DNA from: Mobula hypostoma | Taxonomy: Eukaryota | Length of the DNA stretch: 64,000 bases | Direction: 5' to 3' | Assembly: GCF_963921235.1 (NCBI RefSeq) | Contig: NC_086097.1 | Location: 155,498,001-155,562,000, forward strand | Part shown: in pieces, positions 1 through 62,184 of the stretch | How positions within the stretch are numbered: the stretch's first letter is position 1 | Layout of the letters: each line of letters opens with the position of its first letter | Program-made: the position numbers and the translations under genes | Notes under the pieces: generated by a model | Databases searched by the model: none | The model's input: the letters and a program-made list of their open reading frames with translations, nothing else | Told to the model about the DNA's origin: nothing

Positions 1-1306
1 TCTTTGATGACTGAGGCAGTCCCACATTTCTGATCAATGCCACCATCCCCAGTGAGGCAGCAAGGGACTGCTCTCCCGAAACCCACATTATTCATATTTC
101 TAATGGTGAGGGCAGAATCTGTGCACCAGCAAGCAATGCAATGCTTGTAATGGTGGAACAGCCAGCACAGCTCTGAGCCCATGTCCCAATGGAATGACAA
201 TAAAATGGGAAATGGAACGGGGTGTAAGGAAGGGAGAATTGGAGGTAAAAGTTCCAGTTCAAATTTATTCTCATCTGACTCTACATATATACTAGCAAAT
301 GAAACAATGTTCCTCTGGATCTTGGTGCACCCACAAAACGTATCAGACACACAGCACATAAACCTAAGTATTAACACAAATGAGTTAATAAAATATCGTT
401 CAAAATGCATGTACTGTGCGGCAAAAGGAAACAATAAACAGGAAATAGTTGAATGTCCTAAACCTGAAACCTCAGTGGAAGCAAGGTATTCATGAATTTC
501 TTAACCCGAGGGAAGAAGATGTTATCCAGTCCTGCAATTCTAGTCCTGATGTGTCTGTACTTCCTTCTTGACGGTAGTGGGCCTAAAAGATTGCGGAGTG
601 GGTGGTTGGGGTCCTCAACAATGTGTTAGGCCCTGTTGAGGGAGAAGTAAATTGGAGGGAGGGCTCGGAAAGAACTGGCAAGATCTTCAGAAGCACCGAA
701 CACAGAGCAAACTTAAGGTTAATAGCAGGATTCTTAACAGAGTCAAGAAACAGAGGGATATTGCGGGGGGGGGGGGTCCACATTCATAGATCTCTCAAAT
801 TTGCCACACAAGTTCACCCACCCTTCAGAACTCTTAAAAGCTTCCTCTGACATCCACCCTAGTTTCTTTCACTCACCTCAAATGGATGTGCTCTGGTAGA
901 GTTTTGTAACGCAGGTTAATTAAACCACAAGATGCAGTGTTTGAAAGCTCCACCTGCCGAGGGATGAAAAACGCACACAGGATTGCAAAAAAAAAGGAAA
1001 TAAAAAATAGCTAAGCTAGAAAGAGGGGCGGCTGACCCATGCATTAGGCAAGCGAGAGAAATGCAGCAGACGATAGAAACTAACAGCAGGTACAGTATGT
1101 GGAATTAGCAGTTGGTATCTCTGCTGGCTCGACTCGAGCGGCGGTTGGCGGCGCTGGTTTGAACGGTGTAGGGCCTGTTGGGAAACAGAGTAGGTTAACT
1201 TCAGAGAGGGGGGAAGCATCTGGAAAAGGAATCGCAAAGGGAGGGTTCGAGCAAGGGCCGGTTGGCAGGAGCAGGTTGGAATAAGATCTGGAAAACGGAG
1301 AGAAAC

Positions 1307-1533
1307 TGTGGTAAACCATGTATATATGTTGTAACTGGGTTACCTGTCTGGACACACCCCTCTGCTGACTGCCCCTGTGGCTCTTCCCACAGAGTCCTGT
1401 ATAAAGGTGTTCGCCTTGCCCCTCCCCCTCAGTCCGGGGGCAGACACTCACTGTGGAGGTCATATTGTACAGCGAATAAGAGTTTCAGTATTTTACCAAA
1501 CCTCAGTCTTTTGGAGTAATTGAAGGTGCTTCA
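1307..1533 (+). repeat. 5' LTR of Gypsy element
   Basis: TG...CA ends; TATAAA 1400-1405; Inr-like TCAGTC 1429-1434; AATAAG variant of the poly(A) signal. Confidence 0.95.
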
Positions 1534-1560
1534 ATTTTATTCGCTGTACGTTTTTAAAAC

Positions 1561-2943
1561 ATGGACCAGGCCCCGAGACCAGAAAAATTAGACCTCAATC
1601 CGCAGACACCTGAAGCTGGAAATGCTTTCGAACTCTGGCCGGCCTGCTTCAAAGCGTATCTAGAGGAGATTAAAGCGACCGACCCCGTAGCGAAGCGCAG
1701 AGTTCTACTCTCCAGGGTCAGTCCACGGGTTTATTCGCTGATCAGAGACCAGCCGAACTACGACGGCGCGATGAACACACTCAAAAGACAATACCTGCGG
1801 CCGATAAACAGCGTCTATGCTCGGCACCATTTAGCGACACGGCAACAACGTCCCGGGAAATTGAGTGCTGAGTTCGTCCAGGCCCTACGGACGCTCGTGC
1901 GGGCCTGCAATTGCCAGGAGCTGACGGCGGTGCAGCATGCAGAACTCCTAGTGAGGGACGCCTTCGTCACGGGGACCAGGTCAGTGTACGTGCGCCAGCG
2001 GCTGCTGGAAAAAGCCAATCTTACCCTAAGTTTGGCGATGGAGCTGGCTAATACGTTGGAGGCCGCTCTGCATAACTCCGAGGCTCTCCAGACACGCGAT
2101 CCCCCGATGGCCTCGTGGGTGCCGCAGACCCCGCAACCTGCCGGCGAATCGACCTCAGCTGCTGCCAGTCGTGAGTCCGCGAAGTGCTACTTCTGCGGAC
2201 TGGAGAAGCACCCCCGGAAACGCTGCCCGGCCCGACAAGCTACCTGCTCCAGCTGCGGAAAGAAGGGCCACTTCGCCAAGGTCTGTAAGTCAAAACCGCA
2301 AGCGGGATCGAGCAGCGCCGCATGCGCGACGTGGGGGTCGCCATCTTCCCTGCACACTGCCACCATGTGCGAGACATGGGGGCCACCATCTTCCCTGCCG
2401 CCATCTTCCCTGCACACTGCCACCACGTGCGAGACATGGGGGCCACCATCTTCCCTGCCGCCATCTTCCCTGCACACTGCCACCACGTGCGAGACATGGG
2501 GGCCACCATCTTCCCTGCTGCTATCTTCCCTGCACACTGCCACCACGTGCGAGACGTGGGGGTCGCCATCTTGCCTGCCGCCATCTTCCCTGCACGCCAC
2601 CACCACGTGCGAGACATGGGGGCGGCCATCTTGGTCGACGCCACCTCCCACCGCCTACGACCAATGGGTGCTCACGGGGCACCCCACCACGCCGGACCAA
2701 GACAGCGACCCCACCCTGGCTTCCGTGACCCTCGACCAAAGCGCTCCCCACCAGCTCGCAAGGTCAATGATGGACATCTTGGTGGAGGGGCACAGGACAA
2801 GCTGCCTGTTTGACACAGGCGGCACGGACAGTTTTATCCACCTGGCCACGGTGCAGCATTGTGGACTCATGATATGGCCGGTAAGTCGGAGGGTCACCAT
2901 GGCCTCCAGGTCGCATACAACAGACATCCGGGGGGTTGTGTAG
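1561..2943 (+). CDS. gag: Gypsy Gag (zinc knuckles) plus start of aspartic protease
   Basis: CYFCGLEKHPRKRC and CSSCGKKGHFAKVC knuckles; protease motif LFDTGG; frameshift in the G-run near 2929-2935. Confidence 0.9.
   Translation: MDQAPRPEKLDLNPQTPEAGNAFELWPACFKAYLEEIKATDPVAKRRVLLSRVSPRVYSLIRDQPNYDGAMNTLKRQYLRPINSVYARHHLATRQQRPGKLSAEFVQALRTLVRACNCQELTAVQHAELLVRDAFVTGTRSVYVRQRLLEKANLTLSLAMELANTLEAALHNSEALQTRDPPMASWVPQTPQPAGESTSAAASRESAKCYFCGLEKHPRKRCPARQATCSSCGKKGHFAKVCKSKPQAGSSSAACATWGSPSSLHTATMCETWGPPSSLPPSSLHTATTCETWGPPSSLPPSSLHTATTCETWGPPSSLLLSSLHTATTCETWGSPSCLPPSSLHATTTCETWGRPSWSTPPPTAYDQWVLTGHPTTPDQDSDPTLASVTLDQSAPHQLARSMMDILVEGHRTSCLFDTGGTDSFIHLATVQHCGLMIWPVSRRVTMASRSHTTDIRGVV
2320..2640 (+). 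repeat. 60-bp coding minisatellite in gag, about 5 units
   Basis: Sequence lines 2341-2640 align in 60-nt register; encodes TCETWGPPSSLPPSSLHTAT repeats. Confidence 0.95.
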
Positions 2944-5659
2944 CGACACTAGTGGTGCAGGGCACAGGATATCGGGACTTTACGTTACTGGTCTTGCTTC
3001 AACTGTGTGCCCCTGTGCTGTTGGGGTTGGACTTCCAGAGCCACCTGAAAAGCGTGACAATGAAGTATGATGGGCCCCTCCCGCCAATTACTGTCATAAA
3101 TCCCCTGTTTTGTAGAGATATGTCACGTACCCCGCTACTGACCACACACACACACCGACCCGCGCATCCCACCCAACATCATGCCAACTGCCACACTACC
3201 GACACCACTTGCGGCCTCTCCACCCTCAGGATCCCTCCCCCACCGCTGTTTGCCAACCTGACCCCCGACTATAAACCTGTGGCAACTAAAAGCAGGAGGT
3301 ACAGCGCGGGGGACAGAGCTTTCATTAAGTCGGAGGTGCAGCGGCTGCTCAGGGAGGGGGTCATTGAGACAAGCACAGGTCCTTGGAGGGTGCAGGTGGT
3401 GGTTGTTCGGAACGGGGAGAAGAATAGGATGGTCGTGGACTATAGCCAGACCATCAATAGTTCACGCAGCTCGACGCGTACCCTCTACCCCGCATCGCGG
3501 ATATGGTCAATCAGATAGCACAGTACAAGGTGTACTCGACCATAGACCTAAAATCCGCTTACCATCAGCTCCCCATCCGCCGGGAGGACCGCCCTTACAC
3601 TGCCTTCGAGACGGACGGCAGGCTTTATCAATTCCTGCGCGTCCCCTTTGGTGTCACGAATGGTGTATCTGTCTTCCAGAGGGCAATGGACCGGATGGTG
3701 GACCAGTGCCAACTGAAGGCCACGTTCCCATATCTGGATAACATCACCATCTGCGGTCACGACCAGCAGGATCACGACAACAACCTCCAAAAATTTCTCC
3801 AAGCGGCCAAATCTTTCAACCTCACCTATAACAAGGACAAGTGTGTATTTGGGACCACTGGACTTGCTATCCTTGGGTGTGTCGTGGAGAATAGAGTCAT
3901 TGGCCCTGACCCCAACCGTATGCGCCCCTTGTTGGAACTCCCTCTTCCCAATACCCTCAGAGCCCTCAAAAGGTGCCTGGGCTTCTTTTCATATTACGCC
4001 CAATGGGTCTCTAACTATGCAGACAAGGCCTGCCCCCTGGTCAAGTCCACCACATTCCCCCTCTCTGCCGAGGCCCACGCGGCCTTCAACCGCATAAAAG
4101 GGGACATTGCCAAAGCAGCAATGCATGCGGTGGATGAGGCCATTCCCTTCCAAGTAGAGAGTGACGCCTCCGACTTTGCGCTGGCTGCTACCCTCAACCA
4201 GGCAGGAAGACCAGTGGCGTTATTCTCCCGTACCCTTCAAGGCCCTGAAATTCGGCACTCTGCGGTAGAGAAAGAGGCCCAGGCCATAGTGGAAGCTATA
4301 AGGCACTGGAGGCACTATCTTGCCGGCAAAAGGTTCACCCTGCTAACTGACCAGCGCTCAGTCGCGTTCACATTTAATGATCAGCAGTGGAGCAAAATCA
4401 AAAATGATAAAATTCTGAGGTGGAGAATCGAACTCTCCACCTACAACTATGACATCAGGTACAGGCCTGGGAAGCTCAACGAGCCCTCCGATGCCCTATC
4501 CCGGGGAACATGCGCCAGCGCGCAGATCGACCGGCTATACGCCCTACATGTAGACCTTTGCCACCCGGGAGTCACCCGGCTTTTCCACTTCGTGAAAGCC
4601 CGGAACCTGCCTTACTCCCTTGAGGAGATCAGGATGATGACCAGGGACTGCCAAGTCTGCGCAGAGTGCAAACCGCACTTCTACCGACCCGAAAAGGCAC
4701 CACTCATCAAGGCCACCCGCCCCTTTGAGCGACTGAGTGTTGACTTTAAGGGCCCCCTTCCCTCCACTGACCGCAATGTGTACTTTCTTAACGTAATTGA
4801 TGAGTACTCGCGGTTCCCCTTCGCCATCCCCTGCCCCGACATCACTACCACGTCAGTTATAAAAGCCCTGCGCAAGCTCTTCACTCTGTTCGGATACCCA
4901 TGCTATATCCACAGTGACAGAGGGTCCTCGTTTATGAGTGACGAGCTGCGCCAATATCTACTGGCTAGGGGAATTGCAACCAGTAGGACCACGAGCTATA
5001 ATCCCCAGGGGAATGGACAGGTAGAGGAGGAGAATGGCACAGTGTGGAAAGCCACACTCTTAGCCCTCAGGTCAAAGGGACTGCCGGTCTCCCGCTGGCA
5101 GGAGGTCCTTCCCAAGGCACTCCACTCCATCCGCTCCCTGTTATGCACGGCCACCAATGCCGCCCCTCATGACCGAATCTTTTCTTTTCCCAGAAAGTCG
5201 ACCACTGGGACCACCCTACCAACTTGGCTGACGTCCCCGGGGCCAGTGCTGCTCCGGAAACATGCGAGGAGCAATAAATACTCCCCGATAGTCGAGAGGG
5301 TTCACTTACTTCATGCGAACCCCCAGTATGCCTATGTGGTTTTACCTGATGGGCGGGAGGACACGGTCTCCATCCGCGACCTGGCGCCCGCAGGAGCTCC
5401 GGACCCTTACCCTAAACACTCTGTGGTGACTATTGACCCCGTACCCACCAATGTATGTACCTACAAGACACGGTGCACCCCAAACCCTATACAGACACCA
5501 CACGACACTCCCGTACCGGGCGCGACACACACGCATGAGGGATTACCGACGCCTAATGTGCTGGCACCTGAAGTCAGGCTGGAGCCAGCACAACCGCCAT
5601 CGCCGGTGCTACGTAGATCACAGCGACGGACTCGACCGCCTGATAGACTTAACCTGTAA
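2935..5659 (+). CDS. pol: Gypsy Pol (protease C-terminus, RT, RNase H, integrase), frameshift near 3460
   Basis: RMVVDYSQTIN, IDLKSAYHQL, PFGVTNG, YLDN; RNase H VESDASDFA; integrase H-H-C-C finger, SVDFKGP, IHSDRGSSF, GNGQVE. Confidence 0.93.
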
Positions 5660-5729
5660 ATATACTTCTTGTAAATATTGTCAGTCACTTCACCCCGCGG
5701 GACTCTTTTTCAAAAAAAGGAGGGGTGAA

Positions 5730-5955
5730 TGTGGTAAACCATGTATATATGTTGTAACTGGGTTACCTGTCTGGACACACCCCTCTGCTGACTGCCCCTG
5801 TGGCTCCTCCCACAGAGTCCTGTATAAAGGTGTTCGCCTTGCCCCTCCCCCTCAGTCCGAGGGCAGACACTCACTGTGGAGGTCGTATGGTACAGCGAAT
5901 AAAAGCCTTTTAGTATTTTACCAAACAGTCTTTTGGAGTAATTGAAGGCGCTTCA
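5730..5955 (+). repeat. 3' LTR of Gypsy element
   Basis: Near-identical to 1307-1533; canonical AATAAA at 5898-5903. Confidence 0.95.
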
Positions 5956-5960
5956 GAAAC

Positions 5961-57640: not shown

Positions 57641-58194
57641 TGAGTATATGAAATTATGAGAGGCATAGATACTGTCATCACGGTGCAGACATGGCCCAGG
57701 TGCGGGGTGAGAGACACTGAAACAGGTCGATAGTTTGCAGACTTTAATGTGAACAGCGTTAAAGGGAAAAGAAAACAATAAACAGGCCAAACAGGGCCGT
57801 TAACTAAACCCCTCAAATGGAAAACGTAGACTACACAGTGACTGAAAAGAATAAAACGAATACTGCTAGTCTTCAGAGTCAGTTGACACAACAGTCCAAT
57901 TTCTCAGGAAGTGCTGAATGCAAGCAGGCAGCAAAGCATTGCTGTGTCCAAGTCTCGACAAATACCATGGCGGAATGAATGAAGTTAAATACTATCACAA
58001 TGAAATAATAATCAGCTGACACATGCATATTCACGAGCGTAATTGCTGAATCTGCTGTGCTTCCGAATCCATGGGTGTGACAGATACAGACAATATCTTT
58101 TTCCCAGATTCAAAATGTTTAATTCTAGAGGGCATACATTTAAGGCGAAAGGCTTTTCGATAGGCACATGAACATGAGAGAATGGAAAGATATG

Positions 58195-61100
58195 TGTAGT
58201 AACTTCTACTTTGAAAAAGGCACACTCGACAACTTCATGCCAAAGAAACAGCTTTATGTCAAACTTCAAAAGCGTTATGTATATACAGAAACTTTCACAA
58301 CCCGTACAGCATGGCAGGCACAGTATTTTCAAAGCCCACCGGAAGTAAACCACCACCCCCCCCGCCCCCCCAGTATCCTAATTAGTATTAACTTATTTTT
58401 GATAATGCTCACATTACAACACTTCTCCCCTTTTAAAATCCAACATTCCCCAAATATGACTAGGAAATAAAAACTGGTGTTATTAACTTGCGTACCCCTT
58501 AAAACTTGGACTAGTATCTCAGAACTGTTTATCAATACAAAACATCTGGAAAATGTGACAGATTCAACATTCAATCTAACAACACAAAAAGGAAATGTCC
58601 CATCAAAGATTCAGTCTGTCAGGAGGTTTACGTGTGCACTGTGATCTGCGCACTACCTCCGGTGTCCCAGCAGGCACCGTTGGTTAGGGTGTTTTGGGTG
58701 GATCTGGTTTTGGGGGCATGAGAATGTCCATCCTCCTCAGGGGACCCCGACCCTTCTGCCAGCGCCTCGCCCTCTGGCAAAGTCACTGGTGGACATGCTT
58801 CCACCATAGTCTGTCTCACTTTTGCCTTCATATCCACGCGCAGCAGGTCCAATCTTGACTTGGGCCAATGCCCCATCAGCATATCTGCTGGAGTGTGGGC
58901 ACTCATAGTCTGTGGCATGAGGTGGTATTTAAACAGGAAACGTGAAAGCTGAATGCTAAGAGAGTCCCCTGTTATCCGCATCAGGTCTTCCTTCACTGTC
59001 TGAACAGCCCGCTCAGCCAAACCATTGGAGTCTGGGTGGAAAGGGGCCGTCCGAATGTGATGAATGCCATTCTGTGGCATGAACTCACTGAACAGCTCAC
59101 TGGTGAACATCGGGCCATTATCAGTGACCAGAGTGTCAGGCAACCCGTGGACTACAAGCACTTGCCTGAGTTTGTCTATGGTTGAGGGGGCTGTGATGTT
59201 GCTTATGATGTGAGCTTCGATCTATTTAGAATGCACATCTACCATTACAAGAAACATCTGCCCCATAAAAGGGCCAGCAAAGTCCAAATGTAGCCTAGAC
59301 CAGGGGTGGTCTGGCCACTCCCATGGGTGTAAAGGAGCTGGTGGTGGCATATTCTGATTAGTTTGACATTGCGTGCATGATTTTACCTTGTTCTCCAGAT
59401 CCTGATCCATTCTTGACCACCAAACGTAGGCTCTTGCAAGGCTTTTCATTCGAGACACTCCTGGGTGAGTCTCATGAATTTCCTCCACAATCTGTGAATG
59501 GCCAGGGGAAGGCACGATGACCCTTGGCCCCCAGAAAATGCAGCCATCCTGCAGACTGAGTTCTGTTTTGCGTTTGACATAAGGTCTCAGTTCCTCTCCT
59601 TCCACGACTCTGGGCCAGCCTTGTAAAGAAAAAGTCTTGACTTGGGACAGGACTGGGTCCCTCTCTGTCCACTGCTGGATCTGGGTCACCTTTACAGGTG
59701 TCTCTGGTGTCGCATGCAAGGGTAATCTTCTTGTCTGGGTCATAGTGAACAAGCAGCTTCGCTGAGTGGAGGAGTTCTTTCACTTCCTTGAAAGCTTTCT
59801 CCTGCTCTTCACCCCACTGCCACTTAGTGTCATTGTGAAGCAGCTTATACAGTGGGGTAAAAACCCTTGAGAGGTCAGAAAGAAACTTGCCATAATAATT
59901 CACCATGTCCAAAAATGATCTGAGTTCCGTGATGGTCTTAGGGCTTGGGGCTTCCTTAATAGCTCTTACTTTATTCTCCACAGGGCAAAGCCCCTCAGCT
60001 GTGATCTTGTGTCCCAGGTAAGTCACACTGGATGCCAGGAATACACATTTTCCGCGTTTCAACTGCAGCCCTGCGTCTGAGAGCCTCTTCAGCACCCGTT
60101 CTAAATTAACCAGATGCTCCACCTCCGTAGCCCCCACGATCAAAGTATCATCAAGGTACACTGCTCCGTGCGGAATCCCCTGTAGCAAAGTGTCCATTGT
60201 CCTTTGGAAAATGGCAGGGCTGGAAGCCACTCCAAACACCAGGCGATTTTACTTGAATAATCCCCTGTACGTATTAATTGTGACGTACTCCTTTGAATTC
60301 TCATCGAGCAGCAGCTGTTTGTAGGTGTGGCTCATGTCCAGCTTTGTGAACAGCTTACCCCGTGACAGGGTCACAAACAGGTCATCCACCCGTGACAATG
60401 GGTACTCCTCCAGCCTAGAGACCTGATTCACTGTAAGCTTATAATCCCCACATATCCTCACCATTTTGTCTGCCTTCAAAACTGTAACAATGGAGCCACC
60501 CACCTTGAAAAGAGGACGGGCTCAATACTGCCCAGCCTCTGTAAACGTTCCAGCTCCTCCTCGACTTTGCCTTTCATGGCATAGGGTACCGACCTGGGCT
60601 TAAAAAAACATGGTGTAGCCTCAGGGTCGACATGGAGTTTCACTGTCACGCCCTTCAGTGTTCCCAGCTCGTCCTGAAAACGTCACTGTACCACTGCAGA
60701 ATGTCCTCCGTCGTGTGTGGATACTTAATTTCATGCCAGTTTAGCCAGATTTTGTGAAGCCAATCGCTACCCAAAAGACTGGGCCTCCTGCCCTTAGCTA
60801 TCACTAGCTTGGCTTCAGCCTTCTGACCTCCGGCTGAAATGTCCACATATAACACCCCTAAGTGAGGTATGGGCTGCCCCGTATCGGTCCTAAGTTTGAG
60901 CTTTGATGACCTGATGGAAGGCAGGTTGGACCCCCATGTCCTCCTGTAGGTCTCCTCATTAATGACCGATGCAGTAGCCCCGAATCAATCTCAAACATAA
61001 TGTCCTTTCCCCTGACAGTGACTGTGGCATAATACGGTTCAGGTGATTCCTCATCTGTTTCCACTGCAAACACGTTGTAGGCACACGCTGCCTCTTCATC

Positions 61101-62184
61101 TGCATCTTCTAGATGGTGTGTGGCTGCCTGAGCCTGTAGAGCTTTCCCCTGCCCAGGCTTAATCTTACCCTTTCAACTTCTGCTCTTTTTAGCTAAATGT
61201 CCCTTTTTGCTACAAGAATGACAGACAGTGTCTTTGAATTTGCAATCATTTGCATAGTTCTTCCCTCCACACTGGAAACATTCCACCCGCTTTGCCTGTT
61301 TACCAGTCTCCCTCCTGACTTGGTGCGACCCCCCATGTCCTTTCTGGATATCCTTGACATTATTAGCAGCCATCTCCAGGCCTTGGGCAATCTCTAAGGC
61401 TTTCTTGAAAGTCAACGGTGGGTTTTTCCCTAACTGGCAGTGTTGTACGCTGTCATTATTAATGCCGCATACCAATCTATCATGGAGCATGTTTTCCAAC
61501 ACCGATCCAAAATCACAATGCTCTGAACAGCTGCCAAAGCTCGGCCAGAAGATTGGCCACAGACTGACCTGGCTTCCTGAAACGGCTGTGAAACTTACAC
61601 CGTTGGACTATCACAGAAAGTTTTGGATTGTAGTGGTTCCCCACGAGCTTGACCAGTTCGTCATATGGAATGTCCCCCAGTTTCCGCGGTGTGGCTAAAT
61701 TCCTTATTAGCTTGTAAATCTTTGTCCCACACATACTCAGGAGAATAGAGCGCTTCTTAGCCTCCTCAGTAATTCCATTAGCACAGAGAAAGTGTCCCAA
61801 CCTTTCCTCATACTCCGGCCAGTCCTTGTTTCCTTCCAGAAATTCACTGGTTGTTCCAAACGTAGCTATCAGAAATGTGAAGCTCCCGTTCGAAAAACGT
61901 GCCGATACGTTCACAAAACCAGTTCACCTCATCACCAAAAATCTGTAGAAACTTCTACTTTGAAAAAGGTACACTCGACAACTTTATGCCAAAGAAATAG
62001 CTTTATGTCAAACTTCAAAACCATTATGCATATACAGAGGCTTCCACAACCCATACGGCATGGCAGGCAGAACGGAAATACACCGCTATATACAAAGCCC
62101 ACTGGAAATAAAAAGAACGGAAGTAAAACCCCCCATTATCCTAATTAGTATAAACTTACTTTTAATAATGCTCACATTACAACA
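58195..62184 (-). mobile_element. Mag-type Gypsy LTR retrotransposon, degenerate
   Basis: LTRs 61944-62184 and 58195-58421; PBS-like TGGTGATGAGG; PPT AAAAGGGGAGAAG; RICGDYK, YLDD, RLHLDFAGPF, VTDNG, SNGLAER; TSD GATATG/GATAGG. Confidence 0.93.

Follow-up and report, generated by a model that had tools for sequence, protein, structure and literature searches.

A Ty3/Gypsy retrotransposon of Mobula hypostoma and its relatives probably prime reverse transcription with a stretch of their own LTR

Results

Architecture of the element

The window, as we call the whole 64,000-nucleotide stretch of the Mobula hypostoma genome that was analysed (contig NC_086097.1 of assembly GCF_963921235.1, positions 155,498,001 to 155,562,000 of the forward strand), carries close to its start an LTR retrotransposon that belongs to Ty3/Gypsy by its layout, having TG...CA LTRs, a target-site duplication (TSD), a polypurine tract and gag followed by protease, reverse transcriptase (RT), RNase H and integrase. 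Its best match in the PDB is the Ty3-G Gag-Pol (E 1e-48), and its features are the following:

1302..1306, + strand: 5′ TSD, GAAAC
1307..1533, + strand: 5′ LTR, TG...CA, 227 bp, identical to the 3′ LTR in 216 of 228 aligned columns
1400..1405, + strand: putative TATA-like box, TATAAA; AATAAA instead in subfamily B
1429..1433, + strand: Inr-like motif TCAGT, from which 1431 is a candidate transcription start
1467..1481, + strand: partner in the 5′ LTR, the predicted self-primer, its 3′ end overlapping the position of the poly(A) hexamer, which is AATAAG in the window copy
1482..1533, + strand: loop from the partner to the primer site, by its geometry the predicted template of a minus-strand strong-stop DNA of about 52 nt; the crossover of copy L172 lies at LTR positions 169-188
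1535..1549, + strand: predicted primer-binding position, the complement of the partner, beginning one base past the LTR end
1561..2943, + strand: gag with two CCHC-type knuckles and a 60-nt tandem repeat, continuing into the region of the protease; broken frame
2859..3518, + strand: middle piece of pol in another frame, from the end of the protease to the start of the RT; frameshifted in the window copy
3503..5659, + strand: RT, RNase H and integrase, with YLDN as the RT active-site motif and no chromodomain match
5715..5729, + strand: polypurine tract; relatives too have a purine tract 5′ of the 3′ LTR
5730..5955, + strand: 3′ LTR, 226 bp
5890..5904, + strand: copy of the partner in the 3′ LTR, containing the only AATAAA of that LTR (5898-5903)
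5956..5960, + strand: 3′ TSD, GAAAC

The leader is thus confined to the 27 nt at 1534-1560, the ATG of gag being at 1561. No chromodomain was matched in the window element, and PF00385 was absent from the 120 matches listed in each of two homolog searches; judged by the chromodomain test on the translated sequence, the element is not a chromovirus. The YLDN motif of its RT (3503-5659) is of the YxDN type found in 85 of 113 scored homologs, the other 28 having YxDD. The tandem repeat of 60-nt units at the end of gag occupies 2279-2698 and differs in length among copies. A second, old Gypsy element is located on the minus strand at 58192-62184, with a pol identity of 26% and LTRs that are 79% alike.

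Pairing of the leader with the LTR

TGG is absent from the whole leader (1534-1560), so that the lack of a TGG-starting primer-binding site (PBS) claimed in a sequence-only reading of the locus is borne out; as a control, the second Gypsy element of the window (58192-62184, minus strand) has a TGG-starting site six bases past its 5′ LTR. The other two observations of that reading hold as well. The leader segment 1535-1549 is, over 15 nt, the exact reverse complement of 5890-5904 in the 3′ LTR, a match whose length was attained by none of 20,000 shuffles of the leader (maximum 14) and by none of 19,134 27-mers of the window (maximum 13), and the copy in the 5′ LTR at 1467-1481 differs at one base, which gives a G-U pair with 1535-1549. 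The mismatch of the 5′ LTR is a minority variant among the copies in the genome. It is located at 1480, where AATAAA has become AATAAG with the G-U pair retained, and the same variant is present in the 5′ LTRs of copies L002 and L173. The predicted fold of 1431-1575 includes the leader-LTR helix and has an energy of -45.2 kcal/mol (z -3.3), and none of 200 shuffles was equally stable.

Copies in the Mobula hypostoma genome

A first look at the genome gave about 1,500 candidates for the family, and full-length copies were taken for 140 of 150 gag matches and for 39 of 40 matches to a subfamily B. Among the 140 copies, the 5′ LTR is present in 138 and both LTRs in 127, with a 5-bp TSD in 101 of the latter; L204 and L240, which have no 5′ LTR, were left out. 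A further copy, L308, was set aside for its mismatching TSDs. When G-U pairs are counted, all 15 positions are paired in 84 of the 138 copies and at least 13 positions in 131, most departures from full pairing fall at the CpG, and in most copies both LTRs match the leader equally well.

Partner positions 1, 5 and 8 are T in subfamily B, with complementary changes in its primer site. In a set of 177 copies, the counts of the partner base against its counterpart in the primer site are 126/1/4/41 for position 5 and 108/4/4/34 for position 8, while position 1 is obscured by alignment gaps; with regard to these counts, the split between subfamilies A and B is one or a few ancestral events and not 41 independent ones.

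In copy L172, both LTRs are of type B through the partner and of type A from LTR position 189 on, the primer site and the start of gag are of type A and the TSD is intact, which places the crossover within LTR positions 169-188. The first strand jump is the step that produces a mosaic common to both LTRs (PMC6894440), and the crossover is located where it would be expected from a strong-stop DNA ending at the partner. L172 is the sole element of this kind in a genome-wide pattern search and is a single event, and premature jumps occur too. This recombinant is a short, internally deleted single copy, and 3 of the 15 positions of its primer site are mismatched to its partner.

Other recombination patterns were also searched. 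An A-type TATA combined with a B-type partner gave 4 matches, too few to count, all of which are of B-type between TATA and partner, so that no crossover was found near the proposed transcription start. An A-type partner with B-type sequence downstream gave 5 matches, of which 4 resemble an intermediate subfamily and only L344 resembles a recombinant, its breakpoint having been preselected by the search pattern. Inherited variants, counted in 118 copies, occur at 2 of the 15 partner sites versus 3 of the 25 sites at LTR positions 176-200, and hence are not clearly rarer in the partner. A mapping of the crossover zone by linkage among LTR sites was discarded, linkage being too low everywhere. 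One further rearranged insertion, L007:1500-3212, has a TSD and reads from LTR, leader and gag to the protease region, followed by an inverted primer site with LTR, then the protease region again and finally only the part of an LTR from the partner to its end; both of its joints coincide with 7 nt in which protease gene and partner resemble each other, and therefore do not map the primer end.

The sequence-only reading had proposed a TATA/Inr pair for a start near 1431. TCAGT is retained in 249 of 265 LTRs of the main set and in 59 of 70 of subfamily B, but the TATAAA position reads AATAAA in 63 of the 70 subfamily-B LTRs; among 22 relatives inspected by eye, no TATA was found at a fixed distance. 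The motifs suggest that transcription starts at 1431, 36 nt upstream of the partner, and the placement of the partner at +37 to +51 depends on that predicted start. With such a start the partner would lie inside the transcript as an internal primer, but it may also be the RNA 5′ end, as in Tf1.

Relatives in other genomes

Protein homologs were found in rays, catsharks, a sea anemone, a coral, nematodes and a damselfly, and on many contigs without a named source. No relative was found in the viral contigs searched. Animal-type retrotransposons of this kind are also present on eight contigs filed under bacterial MAGs (L091-L098), which probably represent contamination from a host. When the LTR-gag DNA of one distant family was compared with the Mobula hypostoma genome, no match was obtained.

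Scans for relatives yielded 88 loci and 33 gag-start regions with sufficient upstream DNA, L022 having been dropped because it has too little. An arm pair of 10-17 nt that was reached by none of 100 shuffles is present in 27 of these 33 regions, the arm beginning 11-46 nt upstream of the predicted start of gag; the six that missed the shuffle cut-off are L023, L031 on the minus strand, L042, L058, L060 and L061, the last three being one family with, by eye, an imperfect helix. In 15 loci the LTR ends are fixed independently by the two LTRs, and 14 of them have an exact match of at least 10 nt to the 5′ LTR starting at about +2, while the fifteenth, L042, has a match to its 3′ LTR by eye.

Compensatory changes between leader and LTR, named in the sequence-only reading as the check on its proposal, are evident in an alignment of 22 relatives, in which 95.5% of the cells are paired and both sides have changed in 14 of the 15 pairs. 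The covariation score is 0.706 as against 0.168 ± 0.023 for shuffled alignments, none of 500 of which reached it, and in slid registers only 31-47% of the cells are paired. The rows were selected for carrying an arm pair and the alignment was anchored on it, so these numbers describe the helix and do not discover it; L038 and duplicate family members were left out. The pairing is specific to each family, with an average of 13.7 of 14 positions for the own LTR versus 8.5 of 14 over 506 cross-family pairs, and the primer sites of 23 representatives comprise 21 different 12-mers, none of which has TGG at the primer position. In the RT tree, built from the relatives and the one distant Gypsy of the window with L097 and L098 left out, the families with the helix are scattered at 49-66% identity, and L080 and L085, with nearly identical RTs, differ by one base in both arms.

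Across the relatives, the helix is 13-17 bp long, and the LTR arm's 3′ end, usually AAA, lies opposite the second base past the LTR, the place that a primer's 3′ terminus has to occupy. What stays constant is the +2 register, a partner mostly with AAA at its end and, immediately 3′ of the partner, a small hairpin motif (15 of the 22). The poly(A) hexamer is more variable: in 13 of the 22 relatives and in the window family, AATAAA or ATTAAA forms the end of the partner, whereas in the other 9 relatives the helix segment has neither, and 3 of those 9 have the hexamer in the loop. From its compensatory changes, the leader-LTR pairing is a real and clade-wide feature; covariation demonstrates a helix, and says nothing of its function.

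Discussion

To our knowledge, self-priming has been proven only for the fission-yeast Tf1 and has been inferred for its chromovirus kin and for some plant copia elements. The Tf1/sushi elements self-prime with the extreme 5′ end of their mRNA. From the sequence comparisons and the analogy to Tf1, we consider it probable that the window element and its clade likewise prime reverse transcription with the LTR's own 15-base stretch and not with a tRNA. The sequence-only reading had suggested tRNA-free priming, masking of the 5′ poly(A) site, or both; for the first, covariation at a constant primer register gives good support, while masking would be a second role at most.

The best reading, by analogy, is that elements lacking a chromodomain would here use the mechanism of Tf1, in which the 11 bases at the start are paired with the PBS and the cut by RNase H falls between base 11 and base 12 (PMC7175516). 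In the present clade, the RNA would be cut directly past the LTR arm, probably by the RNase H of the element and often at the junction with the small stacked hairpin, and the freed 3′ end of the LTR arm would prime the copying of U5. The resulting short strong-stop DNA, about 52 nt here, would then jump to the 3′ end of the RNA, the target being the few R bases between AATAAA and the poly(A) site. Since the jump would be made onto a short remaining R, the partner and all of U3 would be recopied from the 3′ LTR, and the primer site would be restored as the primer is copied during plus-strand synthesis, so that the two arms would stay coupled.

Several other explanations of the helix have to be weighed against self-priming. 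Hairpins hide the 5′ poly(A) signal in some retroviral leaders, and the helix might do only this while something else primes, to which the partners ending in AATAAA or ATTAAA in the window family and in 13 of 22 relatives would correspond. We regard this as decidedly unlikely, because the 9 of 22 relatives whose helix is without a canonical signal come from several tree branches and 3 of the 9 have the signal in the loop, the downstream arm need not start at +2 for masking, and no other primer site is present in leaders where the arm lies 11-46 nt before the predicted gag start. As the paired segment of 9 of 22 relatives has no canonical signal, masking appears not to be the core function and to be at most a second role, and with the +2 register and the AAA end being constant but the hexamer not, masking looks optional and the primer geometry does not. 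In cases where the arm is the hexamer, concealment of the 5′ poly(A) signal may be a by-product of the helix.

The primer might also be the copy of the partner in the 3′ LTR, with the 3′ end of the same or a second RNA being trimmed or cut after AAUAAAA and priming at the leader. The exact complement in the window copy does sit in the 3′ LTR, and this copy should be in the transcript if AATAAA is used; we nevertheless find it unlikely, as both LTRs match equally in most copies, the local 5′ helix is predicted at a probability of 0.88-0.99, and in L172 the partner came from the RNA that gave U3 and not from the one that gave U5, as would be consistent with a strong-stop DNA whose end is 3′ of the partner. 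Finally, the primer might be half of a tRNA or some other small RNA of the host, with the LTR match being secondary, since half-tRNA primers are known in some copia lineages (PMC6317226). Such a primer is highly improbable in view of the 21 different primer sites in 23 representatives, each matching its own LTR, and of the switch of both arms within one genome; moreover, the best match to tRNA was 6 nt, among only 13 distinct sequences of 5 types, mostly tRNA-Lys, and a search of Rfam with 1300-1700 of the window gave no match. Priming by the own LTR, with the arm at +2 as the primer site, accordingly remains our preferred explanation.

Self-priming by LTR complementarity has been described or predicted elsewhere. 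Tf1 and Tf2 of Schizosaccharomyces pombe, Tj1 of S. japonicus and the Tf1/sushi chromoviruses are likewise free of a tRNA site, with a primer site that complements a stretch of the 5′ LTR (PMC4600332, PMC5341516). In contrast to them, the window element has no chromodomain at the integrase C-terminus, and its clade is compact (4-4.7 kb, LTRs of about 150-230 bp, helix of 13-17 bp, YxDN in 85 of 113 homologs), has a partner that in most cases terminates with the poly(A) hexamer and may be internal to the transcript, and is known from sequence alone. For the Tcn1 clade and the plant TAR (Houba/Osr) copia elements, self-priming was predicted from at least 10 bp of complementarity between LTR and PBS, 0-5 bp past the LTR (PMC6317226), and the window element, with 15 bp from +2 past its 5′ LTR, falls within the same definition; those elements belong to other lineages and hosts, and an overlap with the poly(A) signal is not mentioned in the accessible part of that paper.

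Among animal Gypsy elements, the Mag A/B/C, CsRN1, Cigr-1, MolGy1-16, PolGy and Saci2 groups likewise lack a chromodomain. The main texts of PMC6238403 and PMC8556966 do not mention PBS or priming, the accessible part of PMC8220671 mentions the PBS only generically, and 5 files of the PMC6238403 supplement, searched for motifs, gave no match. For Saci2, tRNA primers and 4-bp TSDs are reported (PMC12471100), unlike in the window family. In the literature searched, which extended neither to Repbase Reports nor to the primary Tf1 papers, no account of priming in this clade was found. Repbase notes reportedly call some animal Gypsy families self-primed, and with that and with the scope of the search, a prior mention is quite possible. 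Beyond covariation across families, the present analysis adds the switch between subfamilies, the crossover in L172, the finding that the hexamer is separable, the instability of the TATA and a mismatch between LTRs that is biased towards U3.

If the proposal is true, a separate and abundant animal clade would imply that priming without a tRNA either originated another time or is an ancestral trait of wider distribution, and a self-priming ancestor has been proposed earlier (PMC3601003). Self-primed elements would then escape silencing by tRNA fragments, and would be missed by pipelines that require a tRNA PBS. A more far-reaching model, which is possible but rather doubtful, is that an animal-wide non-chromovirus Gypsy clade primes with an internal piece of R ending in the poly(A) hexamer, where a single helix would conceal the 5′ poly(A) signal and, after being cut, would give the primer, leaving only the bases from AAUAAA to the poly(A) site for the first jump, and where the two LTRs of one provirus would often draw U3 from different templates.

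Mismatch between the LTRs of single copies

In copies with intact TSDs (L129-L268 and L299-L337), shared U3 variants often differ between the two LTRs. Such U3-biased mismatch may stem from plus-strand transfer between molecules or from later gene conversion; it would bias LTR dating, and if it arises during copying, ages based on LTR identity would be too old for the clade. In 93 copies of family A, the counts for the 5′ versus the 3′ LTR are 58/18/4/4 at site 31 and 55/7/15/13 at site 52, and in 35 copies of subfamily B the agreement between the LTRs (phi) is 0.02-0.57 at sites 50-139, and 0.68 and 0.82 at the U5 sites 211 and 218.
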